The translations under genes were made by a program, and so were the position numbers. 20,000 bases of DNA from an uncultured virus (IMG/VR IMGVR_UViG_3300045927_000049) (taxonomy: Duplodnaviria > Heunggongvirae > Uroviricota > Caudoviricetes), in IMG/VR virus record IMGVR_UViG_3300045927_000049. One strand, given 5' to 3'. Below, piece after piece: positions 1 to 14,698 of this stretch (its first letter is position 1; each line of letters begins with the position of its first letter). The notes below the pieces were generated by a model. The model saw only the letters and a list, made by a program, of their open reading frames with translations. It was not told the origin of the DNA and searched no databases.

Positions 1-124
1 TCAAACAGATTTTTTTGGACGCAGTTATCCCTATAGCCCACTCTTTTCCCCTTCCCATATTTTCCCACCGTGTTTCCTTTTTTTTCGCTTCGCTACCGGT
101 TATCCCTTCCGGCACCCTCTTAAG

Positions 125-462
125 CCACGACCCCCCCTACCCCCCAGAGAACAGCGCGAAGTTTCCCGTCGCGCATTCTGGGGTTAAAGGGGGTGATTGC
201 CACGGGGTCGTCTTCCCCTCCGAACGTTTCCAGCGGCACCTCGTGTGAAGTCCTAAGTTCCACACAGTCGGATGGTTAACCCTGCGCCCACGGATCATGC
301 TGGCTACGAGTTGCACGTAGTCTCCCGTGAATGATCGATTGCCCAATCGACGGTGACCAACGACGGTCGTTCCCCTCGGTCTTGATCCCAAGGTTCGGTC
401 CCTATAGGCGGGACTGGCTATGCGTATGCGCCGGACGGAGGGGATTGGACCCTCTACACCGT
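125..462 (-). ncRNA. Candidate structured non-coding RNA (possible replication-primer or regulatory RNA)
   Basis: No credible CDS. Starts just downstream of a TTGACA-N18-AAAAAT promoter. Consecutive stems at 438-454, 398-414, 381-392, 335-350, 304-320 and 243-265, plus a three-helix hairpin at 133-193. The ends are estimates. Confidence 0.45.
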
Positions 463-468
463 AGCTTG

Positions 469-498
469 ATTTTTCACCCCTGCACGGAAGGCTGTCAA
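469..498 (-). promoter_or_regulatory. Sigma70-type promoter firing leftward into the non-coding region
   Basis: Perfect TTGACA at 498-493, 18-nt spacer, AAAAAT (4/6 match to -10) at 474-469, located just past the stop codon at 506. Predicted TSS about 462. Confidence 0.55.
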
Positions 499-505
499 CC
501 GATAG

Positions 506-832
506 TCAGCTTTCTTTCTGGTTGATCTTTTCCCTGAGAAGGCGACCGTACTTTTTGGCCAGCGAAATCGGCAGGCCAGCCAGCGTGGTCATCTGGTTGC
601 GCATGTCCTCGACATGCACGTTTGCCAAGTAACAGACGGTATCGAAGTCAGGGCTGGCCAGCCATGCAAAGACCTCATCCCTCGCCCGTGGGTCACCCTC
701 GTAGATGTCACGGACTGACTGGCCGATCACTCCCCTCCAGAGACGATACACGGATGACTGTTCGTGGTCGCTGTGGATCAACCAGCCCGGTGACTGTCTT
801 CTTACGGACCTGTCTATCGTTGACGTAGACAC
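506..832 (-). CDS. Conserved phage hypothetical protein (LWxxVIxQ...WL.SPDF..VC.LA type), about 108 aa
   Basis: C-terminal part of ORF 506..964. YRLWRGVIGQSVRD...AWLASPDFDTVCYLANV resembles a common small phage protein family. Proposed GTG start at 832 is uncertain and overlaps the RusA-like gene. Confidence 0.6.
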   Translation of the reverse strand: MSTSTIDRSVRRQSPGWLIHSDHEQSSVYRLWRGVIGQSVRDIYEGDPRARDEVFAWLASPDFDTVCYLANVHVEDMRNQMTTLAGLPISLAKKYGRLLREKINQKES

Positions 833-1130
833 GTCCTTGCAGGGCGTCGAGGATGAGGCTTTCATCAAGGTCAGGGCGTCGGCTCGTGTAGTAGATTTCG
901 AGTTCGACATGGACATCCCCAAGGAACATGGGATCAAGCGTCGGACACTGCATGGCGAACGCACTCAGGTAACCCAACGCCTCATCGCTTTTGATGAAAC
1001 GGACTTTGCCGTTGACGTGTACCAGTTTGCGGGAGTTCGCCTTGCTATGTGGCTGACCGAGGATCACCTTGGTCCATGGAACCTCACGCCCGAGAAGGTT
1101 CTGTTTTTTCCTTGCCTTGACATTCTTCAT
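708..1130 (-). CDS. rusA: RusA-family Holliday junction resolvase
   Basis: Motifs GQPHSKANSR, DVHVELEIYY-SRRPDLD, ILDALQGRVYVNDRQV and PRTVIRV match the RusA pattern. Start is ATG 1130 or GTG 1067. Confidence 0.85.
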   Translation of the reverse strand: MKNVKARKKQNLLGREVPWTKVILGQPHSKANSRKLVHVNGKVRFIKSDEALGYLSAFAMQCPTLDPMFLGDVHVELEIYYTSRRPDLDESLILDALQGRVYVNDRQVRKKTVTGLVDPQRPRTVIRVSSLEGSDRPVSP

Positions 1131-1197
1131 GGGTCTGATGCTATGAACTGTCGTGTTATCAAACCATGAGCCGGGAGAAATATCCACCAGTCCCGGC
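1117..1197 (+). promoter_or_regulatory. Possible rightward early promoter and leader hairpin
   Basis: TTGACA at 1117-1122 and TGcTATGAA extended -10-like element at 1139-1147 (long 19-nt spacer). 7-bp inverted repeat GCCGGGA/TCCCGGC at 1170-1197, in the divergent intergenic region. Confidence 0.35.
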
Positions 1198-6937: not shown

Positions 6938-6993
6938 GGATAGTTCTTCCGAACTATCCTCTGATGGCGGCGGTCAATCGATTGCCGCCATCA
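6938..6993. terminator. Twin hairpins at the convergence of early and late transcription
   Basis: GGATAGTTC-TTCC-GAACTATCC (6938-6959, 9 bp perfect) and TGATGGCGGC...GCCGCCATCA (6962-6993, 10 bp perfect). No clean U-tract. Confidence 0.6.
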
Positions 6994-9900
6994 CTTCATT
7001 GGCGCGTCCAACGAGATTGTCCTGACGATCCTTCAGCATCTTGATCCGCGCTTCCCTGCTCTCCTCGGTGCCCTTCTTGCTTTCCCTGATCTTCTTGATC
7101 TTGGTGCTGATCTTCTTGCGGGCATTCTCAAAGGCGTTGATGCGGGCGGCGATCTTGTACTCCTTCGGATACTTCTGGATGATCGACAGGTACATCGCAT
7201 CGTCGTTATCCCTGCGGGCATCCTTCATTGCCTTGTGTACGCGCAGCACCTGATCCCTGCCCTCAATGTAGTCCTGTAGGTCGTTGCGCGTGGTGATGGT
7301 GCCGTAGGCTTTGCGCAGGAACGGAATGTCGGTGGCTTCGATCTCCATCTCCGGCAGTTCGCCGGTCGCCCCGCCATACATCAAGCGACCGGCGCGGGCC
7401 AGAAATGTCCCGGTGCCACCGGTAATCCAATCGACTGCATACTCGACCTGATTGGGGGAGTACTCCATCTTGCCGGGTATGTAATCTCCCTGCCGACCGG
7501 TTAGCTGGGACATCCAGTCCGCGATGGAAACAAACAGCGGATGGGTGTTGTTCCAGTATTGCTGGCTGCGGTTTTCTCCAACGTTATCATAGGGGCTGAC
7601 CGGTGGCGCGATGGGCTTGCCGGTGAAGTCCTCATTCATGTAGAGGTCCACTACCGGGTCGATAATCGATGGTACCACCCAGTTGAGGAAGGAGTTCGAT
7701 CCGCCCATCGGGTTGAGGCTGTCGATCATCGTCATGCCGCCCGTGCTCATCAGTTCACCCATCGTGTACTTGCCACGCGCGGCACGGGACGAGGCGCGGC
7801 CCCAGTTGTAGATGCCGTTCATCAGGTACGGCATCGGTATCTTGAAGTAGCCGCGCTCACTGATGCCGAACGGGTCCATGAACACCATGTTATGTTCAAG
7901 CACGTGCGGCGGTATCTTGTCGTAGGTCTTCTCTCCGTCATCGTCTTCCGGGGAAAGCGCCGACATCAGCATGTCCTGCACGGCACCGGCTGCAAGCACC
8001 GACGCCCAGACATACTTCATCCGGCGCGAGCGGATGAACGGGTTGAGCAGCGCCATCGATCCCTGCATCGACGCATTGAAGAACATGTAGAAGGCGGTCA
8101 TCATCGGTTTCATCTCGCCGCCCATATTGAAGTTGACGGTGAGGTTCTTGGCTGCGAATGCCGCCATCTCCTTTGCCCGCAACTGGTTCTGTGCATCGTG
8201 CGGGTCACCGCTGAGTTCAAGGTACTGGTCCCGAAGAACCTTGTAGGCGGCGAGACGGGTGCCGTTTTCAATGGCAAGGTTGTAGTCGGAGATAAACTTG
8301 CCAAGCGCCTTGAGCGGCTTCAGAACTTTGTGTTTGGCACCGGAGACATCCTCGGCCAGATGCTGGTTGATGTGGTCGATGGTGTCAGCCAGTTCACGGA
8401 TGCCGAAGACGGCGGTATGTCCGCCATGCCTGCGGAATTCCTCATGCACCTTGGCCCACTCGCCGGTCGGGTTGCCGGAACGCAGCGACTGCCGCACCCC
8501 GTTGAGTGCCGGGAGAACCGAAGCGATCACCTTGCGGCGCACACCCTTGCGCTTCTGCTCGGACAGGTTGACCATCGCCGCCTCAAGGTCGCGCAGCATG
8601 TTGGCGATCATGAACTCCGGATTGTAGCTGGTGCGGGTGGCGGCAAGGAACCGGTTGACTGCCGCCAGACCTTTGATCAGGGAGTGCATGCCGGTGTTCG
8701 AACCCAGCCCGGACTTCGATCCCATCGCCCTGACGATCTTGTCGTCTTTCATCTTGATGTAGAATTGCTGGCCATCGACCTTGCCCTTGAGCACGGTCGG
8801 ATCGGTCATCACCTGATTGTCCACTGACTGCACGACGGTGCCGGTCTTGACATCGTACCGGTATTTGGTCCTCGGCATCTGAAGGATTTCCGCCACGCCC
8901 GCCATCTGCGCCGGGTTGTCGAGGATCAGCTTGCGGAACGACTGCGCCACCTTGTTCTTCCCGGCCCGCACAATCGTCTCTTGGTTCTGCATGATGGCGT
9001 GGGCAATCAGGTCACGGCCCATGCTTTCGCGGCCAAGGGCTGAGTAGTCTTCCTTACCCCTGATGTTGAAGCCCTTGCCGGTCTTGGCAAAGTCGGACAT
9101 GTCCTCATCCCTGAGAGATGCTTCGCCAAGGAAGCCACGGATCGGCACGTAGTCCTGATAGGTATCGACCGGGGTGCCGTCCGGATGCAGCAGGGTGCGG
9201 AAGTCGGGGGTCAGTCCGGATGCCACGCGGATGTCGTTGGTGGACCTGACGATGGCCCGCATGCGGGAGCGCACGGAGTTCGGATTGGTCGGCTCCATGA
9301 ACTCCCGTGCAAATGGTTTGGTGGCAAACCAGTCGAGCACGGCCTGCGCCTCACCGTCACCCATGCCGGACCCGGCTTCGTACTGCATCGGTCGTTCGCC
9401 AGCGATGCGCTCGTTGCGCTTCTTCATCAGCGCATTTCGCTCCAGTGCATGCTGTGCATAGAGATAGAGTTCAGCCAGTGCGTGCTTGTGGTTGACCTTG
9501 TAGCCGTCGAGGAAACCGGCAACCCTTGGCGAGATGGTGCGTGCTTCGTCGTAGTCCCGGCGGGTGACGCTCAAGCCTTGGATGGTGTCCATCATCGGCT
9601 TGTAGAAGTCCTTGTCGTTGGCGGTCAGATGGGCGTCGGTCTGGCTGGAGTACAGTTGCTCCCTGAGATAGACATCGTTCTCGTTGGTGATGAAGCCGCC
9701 GTTCTTTTTCATGCGGTCGATCAGCCTGCCAATCGACAGCATGCGGTCCTGCAAGGAGATGATGGTGTCGTCGGCCTTCTCCTTCAGGAGAGCCTTCTGC
9801 CTGCCGCCGGGGATGGTCCAGTCGATCAGCTTGTGCAGGACAGGAGACAGGTTGTCGTAGGTGATCCTGTTGTGGACTTCGGACAGCCTGTCGATGGGTG

Positions 9901-12900
9901 GCACGGGCGGCACCCGTGTTCCGGTCGGTGCCGCCGCCGAATACTGTGGGTTTGCCTGCGCCTGTGCCTGCCGGACCATGGAGAAGAAAGGCTGGTCGCC
10001 CTTCTCGAAACTGTCCATCATCGGCTGAGTGAACATCAGGTCGTAGGTGTCGAGAGGAACGCCACCCTTCTGTTCGTCCATCCCCATCGCGGCATCCAAG
10101 CCACGATAGTAGTCGCCGTGCGCATGCCAAGACAGAACATGGTTGATCTCGTCCCGCTCCAGTCCGGCGGATTTCAGGATGTCATCCGGATCATAGTTGC
10201 GCCGGTTGCGGGTGACGTGCATCGCCGTCTTCAGCTTGTCGATCAGCGTCTCCGCGTCCTGCTTCTCGCTGTCGTGCTGGTACACGTCGTCATGGATGTT
10301 GTCCTGATGGTTTTTGTGCAATGCATTGATGAAGTCGAACATGTCTTCCCGTTCAGGCAGGGCTTCGGCGGCACTGAGAGACGGTCCCTCGTCTATCCCC
10401 AGTTCCCACGGCTCCGGCTCCCACGTCGGAGGACGATCCCTGCTTTGCACGACTGAGTGCTCAAGAACTGCACCGAATGGATCGGCAATGCCGCGTGTGA
10501 TACGGGGAAGCTTGAGAAGGTAGCGGTTGACGATGGGTGAGACGGAGACATCTCCATAGGCGGTGTACTGGTTTCGCCCCTTCTCGTCCTGTGTCGTTTC
10601 CAATTCGCCATAACCCTCTGTCACGGCAACGCTTTCCGGAGAGCCGTGCCATGAGATGCCGTCATAGCCATGCTCGACTGCATGCCGGATCATGCGGCGG
10701 ATCACATAGTCTTCCCAGTTCGATTTGAAGGGAGCGTTGGGGATAGCCAGTCGTTCCCGCGCCGCAGCCATCTCTTGGACCACATCGCTGTGCTCTTTCC
10801 TGACGGCATCGATCTGCGGTCCAAGATCGACCATTTCCTGTAGTCGCTCCTGCACCTGTCTGCGGTTGGTGAGTAGCCGCTCGTTCACCGCGCCACCGGT
10901 TTCGGCGCGTATCCTTTTCTCCATCTGTTGCAGCATCCATATCTGGTCAGCGATGACGACCTTCCTGCCTTCCAATTGGCGTTGCTTGTCGTAGAGAGCA
11001 CGCGCCTCATTTCCCAACTGTTCGTACTTGGCTACGGCTGACTTGGAGTAGTAGCCAACCTTCGACCCCCGCTGATGAAGGTCGGACTGCATTTCCTCAA
11101 GGAACATGATACGTTTGCCGTCCCGTTCCACGTCCCTGAAACGGACGAAGGCCAGCACGTTCTCAAGCTTTCGCCTACCCTTGCCTGCGGGCACTGTCAT
11201 GTGCCCGTTCTTGTCGAAGTAGTCCGGCTCCCCTTCCTTACCGGGGAAGGTGAGCGCCACTTCGGCATAGGTCTTGTCGGCCTTGCTGGTCTGGCTGCGC
11301 TCCACCCACTGCGGGCTGGATATCGCCGCTTGACCCAAGTCGGGGTGTGCCGGGTTGGCAAAGACGACAGCACGCACATTGGGTCCGGACGCCTTGACGA
11401 AGTTCATGATGTCGTTGCGGTGGACTTCCTCACCTTTCGGCAAGTCCTGTAGCCACTGCTTGATGCCCAGCCAGTTCAGTTCATCCGGCTTGATCCCGGC
11501 ACTGGACAGCATCTTGATCCAGTCATTCTTCGGTGCCGTCTCACGGGTGACCTTCTCAAGGAAGCGCATGGTGTCGAGATAGAAGTTGTCGGTCTTGAGC
11601 AGCGAGTAGGTGATGTCGTCGGGACCGCGCGGACCCAGCCCGCCATGACCAATCTCACGGTCGGCAATGCCACCGGAGAAGATGGTGTCCATCAGGTCGG
11701 CGGCATCGTGCCGCTGCGACAGCCGCATCATCTTCTTGATGAAGTCGGCTATCTTTCTCAGCAGGCTGCGCTCCGGATTGCGGAACGCGGTCGGGTCGTT
11801 CATGTAGTGCCGCGCCATCTCGGCAATGGCTTCCTCGGCAAGGATGTTGGAGCTGGAGCCTTCGGCGCGGATGGCTGCGCGTTGCAGCCATGTGTACTTC
11901 TTGCCGGGAACCTTGGCGTTCACCGCATGCTGGAACAGGGTGTCCCATTCCTGCGGAGTAAGGAGATCAAGGCTGCGTAAGGCATGGATCAGTTCGTGGT
12001 TGAAGACCTGTTCCATCAACTGAGCACGCTGCTCGGTGGTCAGGTTCGGATTGTAGAGATCGTTGGCAATCCGGATCAGGTTGCCGATGACCCGCTTCAT
12101 GCCATCCGGATCGGTGCGCTTGATGTCCTGTGAGGTGCCTTCGACAATACCGTCCGGCGCTTCCGGGTTGGTCAGCCGTGGCAGGATGCCGACATCCACC
12201 CGTCCCTTGCCCAGAACCTTTTCGCCGTAAGCCTTCAGGCTGTCGGCAACCGGACCCACCTGCTTGGTGAAGTCCTCCTCGATTGCCGCCTGCTTCTCTT
12301 CCGCTGTCTGCTGTTCTTTGTGCTGATTGCTTTCCGGGGAGTAGGCGGCATCGAAACCCTTCAACGCTTCGGTGGCTTCGTTCTCGGTGACGAATGTCTT
12401 GAGCAGCGTGTCACTGACCGTCCGCTGATCCTTGCCGGGGATGTGCTCATGCTGGAGTTCATGGATGCCGTACTGAATACCCTTCGGGTCTTCGCTTACG
12501 GTGGCTTCCTTCTGCCGGTTGGCCGGGATGTTCTTGTCGATCCAGTCAAGCGCCTCTTCGCGTGTGGCAAAGTTCACCTTGCGGCCAACCTTCTTACCGT
12601 CCATCTCGACGGAGAACGGCTTCGCATCGGCTGACTGCACCGCTCTGACGACATACTCACGGGTGCGCCGCTTGCGCCCCTTGCCCGTCTTGTCCACCGT
12701 CTCGCCGGTTCCATGCGGTTCAATGATCTTGATGTACTGGTCCTTGTTGCCAGCCGCATGGGCATCGCCACGCTTCAGTATCTCGTTGAAGTAGGCTTCT
12801 GCCATCGGCTTGGAGACGCCCAGCGTTTTCCTGATCCTGTCGATGGACAGAGTGCCCTTGTCCCGCAAGGCGACGACGGATTTCTTGTAATCGGTTTCGC

Positions 12901-14698
12901 TGATCGGTGAGACTTCCTCACCAATCTTCGGTGTCGCCGTTACCCGGCTGGCCTGCGGTGCTGATCCCTCCTGCGTTGTCTCTGAACCAGCAGCCGCAAC
13001 ACGCGGCGACATTCCGGTGACAGCGGACTTGTTGATGACGGCGTACTCGGTGCGGCCCTTCGGGCCAGTGCCCGCCACCACACCGTAACCTTGGTTAGCC
13101 AGTTCATTCATCCGCTCCTGTGTCAGCCCGATGATGGTGCCCTTCTGGCGGAAGATTTTGGTGCCGGGGGCGATGTCCACATTATAGACGGTGGGTGTGC
13201 CGCCCATCCTGCGGGAGAAGTTCTCGGCCTGTGACAGGTCTTCCTCGGCATGGCCGAAGAACCCGGCATAGAGACGGCCCTTCTTTCCGGGTCTGTCATG
13301 GATGAGGTTGATGCGGTCCTGCGTCAGTTGCGCATCGCCGGTTCCATGGATCAGCCGCATGCCCTCCTTGCCAACCAAGTCCGGCACGGCGTGCGGCGAT
13401 AACGGGGCGGAAGGGACTGGTGCAGGGGGCGCTGGAGGTGGCGGCTTCGGTCCTTCGGTTTCCGTATCCTTCAGACCGGCAGGAAGCTTCTGCTCATCGT
13501 CCTCCGTGAAACTTTCCACGATGTCGCTGGCATTGTCCGGCTGCGCACCGGCAACCACCTGATTGTCCAGCGGTTTCGCCAGCGCATCCTCAACTTGAGG
13601 GGGTTGGCCTTCCTGCTTGGGACCGAAAGCTTTCTGTCTGGCGGAAAGGTCGGCGGCTTCGGCGTCAATGTCCTCCTTCGCCTGCCGCAAGGCTTCTTGG
13701 TTTTTGGCTTCCTTCATGCCGCCGTGAGCACCAGCGCCAGCGCCGAAGATGCTCTCGACAATGCCGCCCATGATGGCGCTTTCGATGTACTCGGCCTTGG
13801 CCTTGTCATCCATCATCGGCAGTTCGGCCTGCCAGCGTTCCAGCCCCTGCTGGATCACCTCTTCCGACGCACCGGTTACCGCAGACAGCGCAGCCCCTTC
13901 GCCAATCCGCTTGGCGACAAGCGTCATCGATTTCTGCGTGGCCTTGGCCACCGCATCCTTGATGACCTTCTGCGTTGCTTTGGGAACGGTTGCCTTCCCG
14001 GCGGCACCGATGACGCCAAGAACGCGCAGTCCTATCTTGTCGGTGATTGTCTCGACGCCAGACTGGAGAGCGGTCGAGGCGTAAGCCTTGCCCCAGTCCT
14101 TGACGTAACCATGCTCTTCGATCTGCCGTTCGGCATTGGCGTTGAGCATCTGGGGTCCATAGCCCAGTGCGCCGCCGATGACGCCGCCGATGGCACCACC
14201 GATACCAGCCCCAATTGGCCCGCCAAAAGGAGCGCCAATAGCTGCACCAACGGCAGTCCCAACACCCATGCCGCCAAGACCCAGACCCATCGACGGGGCA
14301 GACTGTCCGATGGTTCCGGCGATGGCGTTGGCTTTGTTGGTATTGCTGTCGAGGAAGCTGCCCTCCGGTGTGCCATACGTATCTCTCTCAGCCCGCTGTG
14401 CCTGCGCTGCCTGTTCCCACTCCTTGGCCCGCGCAGGGTCACCCAAGGCTTCGAACAGTGACTGACCGGCGGTATCGACGCCAGCCTGTATTTCGTTCCA
14501 GCCACGCGCAACACCTCGACCGAACTGGGTCAGCATGCCGGGGGCTTCTTCCTTGGGGGGTTCAGTGGTGACCGCTGCCTGCGGCTTGGCTGTCAGGTGC
14601 GCGTTGATGCGGGCCATCTCCGTTTGGGATGGCGCTTCGCCTTTGATCCTGAAAATAATCGGGGTGCCGTTCGCTCTGCGTGCGAGAAACTGGCCCAT
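6974..14698 (-). CDS. Giant internal virion/ejection polyvalent protein (2574 aa)
   Basis: Gly-rich hydrophobic N-terminal segment, HGT...EY ART-like module, FtsK-gamma-like winged HTH, HELIH...EEAIAE zincin, LEEMQSD domain, and an LPD38-like C-terminus (TVNFNMGG, YMFFNASMQG, YFKIPMPY). Last gene of the ejection cluster. Confidence 0.88.
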   Translation of the reverse strand: MGQFLARRANGTPIIFRIKGEAPSQTEMARINAHLTAKPQAAVTTEPPKEEAPGMLTQFGRGVARGWNEIQAGVDTAGQSLFEALGDPARAKEWEQAAQAQRAERDTYGTPEGSFLDSNTNKANAIAGTIGQSAPSMGLGLGGMGVGTAVGAAIGAPFGGPIGAGIGGAIGGVIGGALGYGPQMLNANAERQIEEHGYVKDWGKAYASTALQSGVETITDKIGLRVLGVIGAAGKATVPKATQKVIKDAVAKATQKSMTLVAKRIGEGAALSAVTGASEEVIQQGLERWQAELPMMDDKAKAEYIESAIMGGIVESIFGAGAGAHGGMKEAKNQEALRQAKEDIDAEAADLSARQKAFGPKQEGQPPQVEDALAKPLDNQVVAGAQPDNASDIVESFTEDDEQKLPAGLKDTETEGPKPPPPAPPAPVPSAPLSPHAVPDLVGKEGMRLIHGTGDAQLTQDRINLIHDRPGKKGRLYAGFFGHAEEDLSQAENFSRRMGGTPTVYNVDIAPGTKIFRQKGTIIGLTQERMNELANQGYGVVAGTGPKGRTEYAVINKSAVTGMSPRVAAAGSETTQEGSAPQASRVTATPKIGEEVSPISETDYKKSVVALRDKGTLSIDRIRKTLGVSKPMAEAYFNEILKRGDAHAAGNKDQYIKIIEPHGTGETVDKTGKGRKRRTREYVVRAVQSADAKPFSVEMDGKKVGRKVNFATREEALDWIDKNIPANRQKEATVSEDPKGIQYGIHELQHEHIPGKDQRTVSDTLLKTFVTENEATEALKGFDAAYSPESNQHKEQQTAEEKQAAIEEDFTKQVGPVADSLKAYGEKVLGKGRVDVGILPRLTNPEAPDGIVEGTSQDIKRTDPDGMKRVIGNLIRIANDLYNPNLTTEQRAQLMEQVFNHELIHALRSLDLLTPQEWDTLFQHAVNAKVPGKKYTWLQRAAIRAEGSSSNILAEEAIAEMARHYMNDPTAFRNPERSLLRKIADFIKKMMRLSQRHDAADLMDTIFSGGIADREIGHGGLGPRGPDDITYSLLKTDNFYLDTMRFLEKVTRETAPKNDWIKMLSSAGIKPDELNWLGIKQWLQDLPKGEEVHRNDIMNFVKASGPNVRAVVFANPAHPDLGQAAISSPQWVERSQTSKADKTYAEVALTFPGKEGEPDYFDKNGHMTVPAGKGRRKLENVLAFVRFRDVERDGKRIMFLEEMQSDLHQRGSKVGYYSKSAVAKYEQLGNEARALYDKQRQLEGRKVVIADQIWMLQQMEKRIRAETGGAVNERLLTNRRQVQERLQEMVDLGPQIDAVRKEHSDVVQEMAAARERLAIPNAPFKSNWEDYVIRRMIRHAVEHGYDGISWHGSPESVAVTEGYGELETTQDEKGRNQYTAYGDVSVSPIVNRYLLKLPRITRGIADPFGAVLEHSVVQSRDRPPTWEPEPWELGIDEGPSLSAAEALPEREDMFDFINALHKNHQDNIHDDVYQHDSEKQDAETLIDKLKTAMHVTRNRRNYDPDDILKSAGLERDEINHVLSWHAHGDYYRGLDAAMGMDEQKGGVPLDTYDLMFTQPMMDSFEKGDQPFFSMVRQAQAQANPQYSAAAPTGTRVPPVPPIDRLSEVHNRITYDNLSPVLHKLIDWTIPGGRQKALLKEKADDTIISLQDRMLSIGRLIDRMKKNGGFITNENDVYLREQLYSSQTDAHLTANDKDFYKPMMDTIQGLSVTRRDYDEARTISPRVAGFLDGYKVNHKHALAELYLYAQHALERNALMKKRNERIAGERPMQYEAGSGMGDGEAQAVLDWFATKPFAREFMEPTNPNSVRSRMRAIVRSTNDIRVASGLTPDFRTLLHPDGTPVDTYQDYVPIRGFLGEASLRDEDMSDFAKTGKGFNIRGKEDYSALGRESMGRDLIAHAIMQNQETIVRAGKNKVAQSFRKLILDNPAQMAGVAEILQMPRTKYRYDVKTGTVVQSVDNQVMTDPTVLKGKVDGQQFYIKMKDDKIVRAMGSKSGLGSNTGMHSLIKGLAAVNRFLAATRTSYNPEFMIANMLRDLEAAMVNLSEQKRKGVRRKVIASVLPALNGVRQSLRSGNPTGEWAKVHEEFRRHGGHTAVFGIRELADTIDHINQHLAEDVSGAKHKVLKPLKALGKFISDYNLAIENGTRLAAYKVLRDQYLELSGDPHDAQNQLRAKEMAAFAAKNLTVNFNMGGEMKPMMTAFYMFFNASMQGSMALLNPFIRSRRMKYVWASVLAAGAVQDMLMSALSPEDDDGEKTYDKIPPHVLEHNMVFMDPFGISERGYFKIPMPYLMNGIYNWGRASSRAARGKYTMGELMSTGGMTMIDSLNPMGGSNSFLNWVVPSIIDPVVDLYMNEDFTGKPIAPPVSPYDNVGENRSQQYWNNTHPLFVSIADWMSQLTGRQGDYIPGKMEYSPNQVEYAVDWITGGTGTFLARAGRLMYGGATGELPEMEIEATDIPFLRKAYGTITTRNDLQDYIEGRDQVLRVHKAMKDARRDNDDAMYLSIIQKYPKEYKIAARINAFENARKKISTKIKKIRESKKGTEESREARIKMLKDRQDNLVGRANEVMAAID

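Follow-up and report, generated by a model that had tools for sequence, protein, structure and literature searches.

In phages of the lambda type, the origin of replication lies inside the gene of the initiator protein (O) and combines iterons with an adjacent unwinding region. Other origins are activated or primed by a transcript, as in ColE1 (RNA II), T4 (ori(uvsY) and ori(34)), T7 (primary origin) and mitochondria (LSP/CSBII). Phages also produce regulatory RNAs and leaders, among them oop and 6S of lambda, sar of P22 and put of HK022. Like such regulatory RNAs and like the large ornate RNAs GOLLD and ROOL, the locus described here is a promoter-proximal, non-coding and hairpin-rich stretch of phage DNA, for which a sequence-only reading had proposed a densely structured, functional RNA of about 340 nt and possibly of an undescribed class. 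Unlike them, it gives no Rfam match at or near the gathering score and shows no terminator, no conservation and no folding above background. The comparisons below rather suggest that the stretch may be a control region of the slot it occupies in the replication module than a discrete folded RNA gene. The G6TAG7 box within it is the part worth following, and the claim of a structured-RNA class is not shown.

The window, meaning the whole stretch of 20,000 nt that was analysed, is the reverse strand of a viral record of 42,154 bases, and its minus strand corresponds to the plus strand of that contig. The sole other copy of the stretch that was found (100% identical) is in another viral record, 57.5 kb long and 94% complete, which is identical across the locus (2701 of 2701 bases). 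Along the strand of the candidate RNA, a RusA-like resolvase gene is followed by a 75-aa ORF, the promoter-like site TTGACA-N18-AAAAAT, approximately 400 nt free of genes, orfA (104-128 aa), the Cys-rich orfB (54-60 aa) and a hairpin. The features in the window are:

708..1187, minus strand: RusA-like Holliday-junction resolvase gene (PF05866, E 1.4e-6; phrog_140; 283 homologues)
506..733, minus strand: conserved 75-aa ORF, always after RusA and forming the left edge of the variable slot (homologues in related loci)
469..498, minus strand: sigma-70-like site TTGACA-N18-AAAAAT (10/12 matches), beginning 9 nt past the stop codon of the small ORF
66..462, minus strand: non-coding, probably transcribed stretch between the predicted start (about 462) and the AAGGA-N6-GTG that opens the next gene
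133..193, minus strand: long 3' hairpin of the sequence-only reading, with a C-rich arm CACCCCCUUUAACCCCAGA, an inner GCGCGA/UCGCGC stem and a G-rich arm
130..146, minus strand: G6TAG7 box TGGGGGGTAGGGGGGGT, a conserved element in the G-rich arm of the 3' hairpin and a widespread exact 17-mer
24..121, minus strand: two imperfect direct repeats, AAGAG.G.G ... AGGGATAAC (121-98 and 45-24), with an A8 tract between them at window 89-82

Depending on the start codon chosen, either the GTG at window 68-66 or one situated shortly past the first base of the window, orfA lies largely or wholly past the window. Pfam, PHROGs, PADLOC, the Atlas and phage records gave no function for orfA or orfB, and the one relative of orfA that was found (P0122, 62% identity) shares its contig with a RusA relative (P0024, 67% identity). 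An ORF of 615 aa lies about 3.3-3.7 kb further along from the gap, with orfA, orfB and several accessory genes in between.

The gap itself is non-coding, as the sequence-only reading had it. None of the three ORFs tested in it (84, 63 and 82 aa) has a match among Pfam or PHROG families; the 84-aa ORF found no word-sharing protein among 5.8 billion clustered proteins, and the 82-aa ORF had 0 matches among 1.84 billion representatives. GC content by codon position is flat in the first half of the gap (0.59/0.58/0.60), compared to 0.56-0.62/0.38-0.42/0.62-0.73 in four neighbouring genes (RusA, the small ORF, a 277-aa gene and the primase-helicase). With these ORFs lacking a family and the 84- and 82-aa ORFs lacking a homologue, a protein-coding reading was rejected. 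The promoter called at 498-469 on the minus strand is present with the motif claimed for it, but the count of such sites is no better than chance, since a scan of 2.1 kb on both strands returned one site against 1.0 +/- 1.1 in shuffles.

The small ORF allows the slot to be followed into other phages. It is 81% and 53% identical in two loci (L082 and L083); across another 21 viral loci (L169-L190) the identity falls to 35-38%. A tblastn search with the small ORF and its marine version from L170 matched 133 of 190 loci, several of which are the same contig repeated. In the two nearest of the relatives compared (RusA identity 88% and 66%) the pair of RusA and small ORF is kept and unrelated DNA follows the stop codon. 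Blastn and nhmmer searches of 159 related loci revealed no DNA similar to the stretch (best blastn match 29 nt at E 0.064, nothing with nhmmer), phage records held no match, and exact words from the 5' and central hairpins gave only chance-level matches or the longer record of the same phage. Neither did the syntenic loci collected by RusA, the small ORF and orfA from viral, metagenome and genome collections contain similar DNA.

In the marine relatives, an ORF of about 600 aa starts 70-240 nt past the small ORF, and all 16 of the gaps inspected among the 133 matching loci are AT-rich and full of short repeated words. Toprim together with DnaB_C or AAA_25 domains was found in both of the ORFs tested (L055 and L005) and in the 615-aa ORF of this phage, and by these domains the ORFs look like T7 gp4-like primase-helicases. 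The slot is syntenic between this phage and its relatives; in this phage it carries a 3.7-kb set of accessory genes that the marine relatives do not have. The stretch is thus placed where an origin would be expected, in a replication module near an initiator or primase-helicase gene, and occupies the same slot as the repeat-rich gap of the relatives. This origin-like gap is a first likeness to origins of the lambda type.

A second likeness lies in the box. In the 42-kb genome, runs of at least six G or C have six start positions at four places, and double runs occur at the same two places only in both the 42-kb and the 57.5-kb record, namely as G6TAG7 in the 3' hairpin and, inverted and imperfect, as C6TCTAC8 3.1 kb downstream. 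The exact 17-mer TGGGGGGTAGGGGGGGT was found in 96 IMG/VR stretches compared to 8 that contain a control 17-mer taken from this RNA, an over-representation that rests on one control word and is to be read with the possibility that G-runs have a background of their own. A 19-mer recovered only the longer record of the same phage. The 80 of the 96 stretches that were compared fall into 46 sequence clusters, including that of this phage, and come from AT-rich as well as GC-rich phages.

In other phages the box is widespread and lies in initiator genes in three reading frames. Long ORFs spanning or touching it match, in 17 of 24 cases tested, PHROGs named replication initiation, primosomal, DnaD-like or O-like, and one further ORF carries a Gemini_AL1 (geminivirus-type) Rep domain. 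As in lambda-type origins, the box of at least 17 loci lies inside O-like, DnaD-like or primosomal initiator ORFs, directly after a repeat-encoded peptide. The box is C-rich in the sense strand of 19 of the 20 ORFs examined and is read in frame 0 (n=13), frame 2 (n=5) or frame 1 (n=1), giving the peptides TPPTPQ/H (13), (I/V/T)PPLPP (5) and HPPYPP (1) directly after the low-complexity, repeat-encoded peptide. As the same word is kept in three frames, the constraint would act on the nucleic acid and not on the protein. At a lenient threshold, 23 of 46 clusters have tandem repeats whose start lies no more than 60 nt 3' of the box as read on the G strand, and in 11 of 46 such repeats end within 60 nt on the 5' side. 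The G6TAG7 tract is the only part of the stretch with comparative support, and it behaves as a DNA-level box associated with replication-initiator genes and iteron-like repeats, not as an RNA helix. The association with initiator genes has exceptions: terminase or HNH genes are the neighbours of some copies, others are found where the DNA has no long ORFs, and DUF1376 initiator genes of cultured phages contained the box in 0 of 4 cases.

A family of AT-rich phages (L201, L203 and 25 IMG/VR loci, a cluster of 27) carries the exact box between CCAAGTA-type words, in a surrounding 1.4 kb that has no stop-free frame of 90 codons; no match to this family was found among cultured phages.

At the locus itself, the exact TGGGGGGTAGGGGGGGT at window 146-130 minus is followed, in the direction of the G strand, by weak repeats, the same order as in 23 of the 46 clusters. 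The two direct repeats (121-98 and 45-24) align with a score of 26 compared to 19.3 +/- 3.8 in shuffles (36 of 500 as high), and two of the three copies of AGGGATAAC in the genome lie in window 24..121. These repeats downstream of the box could be regarded as weak candidates for iteron-like elements. A8 and A7 tracts are present, GC content is 47-57% and there is no strongly AT-rich block. An iteron-type phage origin would be expected to have at least three iterons and an AT-rich unwinding element.

Given the position of the slot, which is an origin-like gap in relatives, and the occurrence of the box together with repeats in initiator genes, the most likely reading, though somewhat short of probable, is that the stretch serves as a control region of the origin type, with a promoter directing transcription into a conserved origin box. 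The slot holds, in this order, the promoter-like site, a non-coding part of about 320 nt, the G6TAG7 box and the two weak repeats with their A tracts. The box would be a constant DNA element of phage origins, and transcription from the promoter would carry a G-rich RNA into it. This RNA might activate or prime initiation as an R-loop like those of ColE1 RNA II, T4 ori(uvsY) or mitochondrial CSBII, or it might just extend into the two small genes that follow. We infer the origin function, the role of the transcript and the incidental nature of most hairpins from these comparisons.

Several observations stand against the origin-type reading or set the locus apart from known origins. Clear iterons are missing at this locus, unlike in lambda; no O-like gene was found among the scanned genes of this phage, which has a gp4-like primase-helicase instead; and the constant part of the lambda origin is AT-rich rather than G6TAG7. 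The primase-helicase gene is 3.3 kb away and has a box copy of its own. In its sequence layout the locus resembles transcript-activated or transcript-primed origins, with a G-rich tract 330 nt past the promoter-like site and a purine-rich stretch behind the tract. Polarity differs, as the predicted transcript is G-rich at this locus and the sense RNA of initiator genes is C-rich.

A bolder form of the origin-type reading is rather improbable. G6TAG7/C7TAC6 would in this case be an undescribed constant origin element of many unrelated tailed phages, at which a G-rich RNA of about 400 nt primes or licenses initiation. The box would be written into initiator genes in whatever frame, beside iterons specific to each lineage, and the RNA from the dedicated promoter would anchor to the box by forming an R-loop or a G-quadruplex hybrid, a phage counterpart of mitochondrial CSBII and ColE1 RNA II. 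The interrupted poly-G/poly-C form of the box does resemble blocks of the vertebrate mtDNA control region. In the open-access literature searched, no phage paper on the box was found, and its 15-mer appeared only in six papers on vertebrate mitogenomes (bird, fish and parrot), of which some mention the control region, and in three unrelated papers. If the box is an origin element, it would provide a sequence handle for locating replication origins in uncultured phages, and it raises the question of what recognizes an interrupted G-run whose every letter is preserved across three reading frames.

Among soil samples, the stretch was found in 18 DNA runs and 6 metatranscriptome runs, and 22 of these 24 listed runs contain at least half of its sampled words. 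The listed runs and both viral records probably represent one phage population. All four of the RNA-library runs that were examined, which were chosen for containing the stretch, have a contig over it (contig positions 27266-27850, 27352-27719, 27313-27690 and 27336-27671); these contigs give no strand, ends or level, and carried-over DNA is possible. The contig of the stretch is the deepest of the locus in X20 (28.7) and X22 (about 7) and not in X19 or X21, a contig depth that cannot rank genes.

The idea of the sequence-only reading, here taken as a free-standing, trans-acting and structured RNA of about 350-400 nt that the phage would transcribe from a dedicated promoter, is unlikely. The stretch is indeed non-coding and preceded by a promoter-like site, it belongs to no Rfam family, and it has a contig of its own in each of the four RNA runs (from about 27266-27352 to 27671-27850), which is a weak hint in favour of such an RNA. 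Rfam 15 (4227 models) gave 0 matches at the gathering threshold in the window, the best score being 20.6 bits for mir-647 against a threshold of 93 and others being likewise far below, so the RNA would be new if it existed. ARAGORN found 0 tRNA or tmRNA genes in the window, in line with the sequence-only reading, and the UCCAAUC loop that it had called T-loop-like differs from the T-loop consensus at the second position.

All seven stems that had been listed were located, and the fold is strand-specific. The 341-nt minus strand reaches a z-score of -2.83 (0 of 100 shuffles as good) compared to -0.79 for the plus strand (25 of 100), and a 398-nt version gives -2.46 on the RNA strand and -0.44 on the other strand. 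The RNA strand therefore beats its shuffles, but no excess remains over the background of the genome. Among 64 other 398-nt windows of the same genome (mean z -0.90, sd 1.35), at least 10 score lower than the -2.46 of the target. Local folding is ordinary as well: on the RNA strand, the three 150-nt windows that cover the stretch have z-scores of -1.48, +1.84 and -0.07, where 530 windows across the genome average -0.51 (sd 1.30). The strand asymmetry of the fold is real, and the amount of structure is no more than is found elsewhere in the genome. In a genome whose background folds this well, the description as densely structured is not established, and hairpin-dense gaps led by a promoter in GC-rich phages generally need a genome-matched background before a structured RNA is called.

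Other evidence also weighs against a free-standing RNA. No terminator was found by the promoter/terminator scan at the 3' end of the stretch or before orfA, and the 3' hairpin at 133..193, which does appear in minimum free energy (MFE) folds, has no U tract behind it and is therefore not an intrinsic terminator. The nearest relatives lack the stretch, and no diverged copy that could reveal covariation was found. The sole conserved piece, the box, would be constrained as DNA within protein genes. Another exact word, GGGTCCAATCCCCTCCG, occurs in seven foreign stretches with four sequence contexts, some of which form the same hairpin; as their flanks are dissimilar, these copies were taken as chance or independent hairpins.

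One version of the free-standing RNA would have its G tract pair with a C-rich loop 3.1 kb downstream, before the primase-helicase gene. The C6UCUAC8 tract is displayed there in the 32-nt loop of a 10-bp hairpin, UGGCUGCACC/GGUGCAGCCA (contig 30760-30870, outside the window; L300 about 560-670). A terminator-like hairpin with a run of U comes next, 150 nt before the gene. G6UAG7 could form 15 contiguous pairs with this loop, one of them G-U.

It is similarly doubtful that the stretch is a long structured 5' leader acting in cis on orfA and orfB, although the layout would suit one. A single promoter-like site lies upstream, no terminator precedes orfA, and an AAGGA sits 6 nt ahead of the GTG used by gene callers for orfA (P0121, 128 aa). 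In the MFE fold, the first 8 nt of the transcript pair with ACACGGUG, which contains this GTG. A 19-nt inverted repeat after orfB (89% complementary, 8-nt loop), about 1 kb downstream, closes the unit, although the promoter/terminator scan did not call it as a terminator, and the RNA contig in X19 extends from upstream of the promoter into orfA. On the other side, the predicted closing helix has only 7 bp, the only relative of orfA (P0122, 62%) has a different, protein-coding N-terminal extension at the position of the leader, and with no known function or ligand for orfA and orfB there is no sign of a sensor.

Finally, the stretch could be functionless filler at a mosaic junction, with hairpins that arise by chance in DNA of 58% GC and with at most the G6TAG7 box of importance, a reading to which we likewise give a low probability. 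The background distribution of z-scores covers the target, the promoter count equals the chance expectation, relatives have unrelated DNA at this place, and the slot carries a 3.7-kb accessory set missing from marine relatives. Against filler, 400 nt without genes are unusual for this packed genome, and the RNA libraries cover the stretch. Its identity in two viral records and the presence of at least half of its words in 22 of the 24 listed runs count weakly in the same direction, as these probably derive from one population.

Three further candidates were rejected. Type III toxin-antitoxin RNAs of the ToxI kind are built of units of about 34-45 nt repeated in tandem ahead of an endoribonuclease gene; the stretch contains neither a tandem nor a direct repeat family, and PADLOC gave no match for orfA or orfB in this context. 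For a CsrA/RsmA sponge of the CsrB/RsmZ type, the excess of GGA is compositional (17 compared to 12.7 +/- 2.9 in shuffles, 202 of 2000 as high), and neither a terminator nor a match to CsrB/Rsm models of Rfam was found. If the locus were a mobile element, the two boxes would be its terminal inverted repeats, yet they match over 15 nt only and their flanks fail to align.

Four minor observations were made along the way. TTGCCCCCCTCTA at contig 35009-35021 repeats 13 nt of the box copy that lies upstream of the primase-helicase. Two unrelated phages (L194 and L197) carry, in intergenic DNA, a CGGAGGG-UCCAAUC-CCCUCCG hairpin like that at window 438-454 with longer stems; these hairpins are presumably independent of the one in the window. 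After the orfB hairpin and an AT-rich patch, contig 28380-28600 (outside the window) is a second gene-free and hairpin-rich stretch, with no Rfam match above threshold and with a 16-nt inverted repeat (94% complementary) directly before a small signal-peptide-like ORF. Inside the window, an ORF of 2574 aa (6974-14698, minus strand) matches very large phage proteins of unassigned function over its last 900 residues (phrog_14770, E 8e-121) and also bears a short methyltransferase-like stretch.
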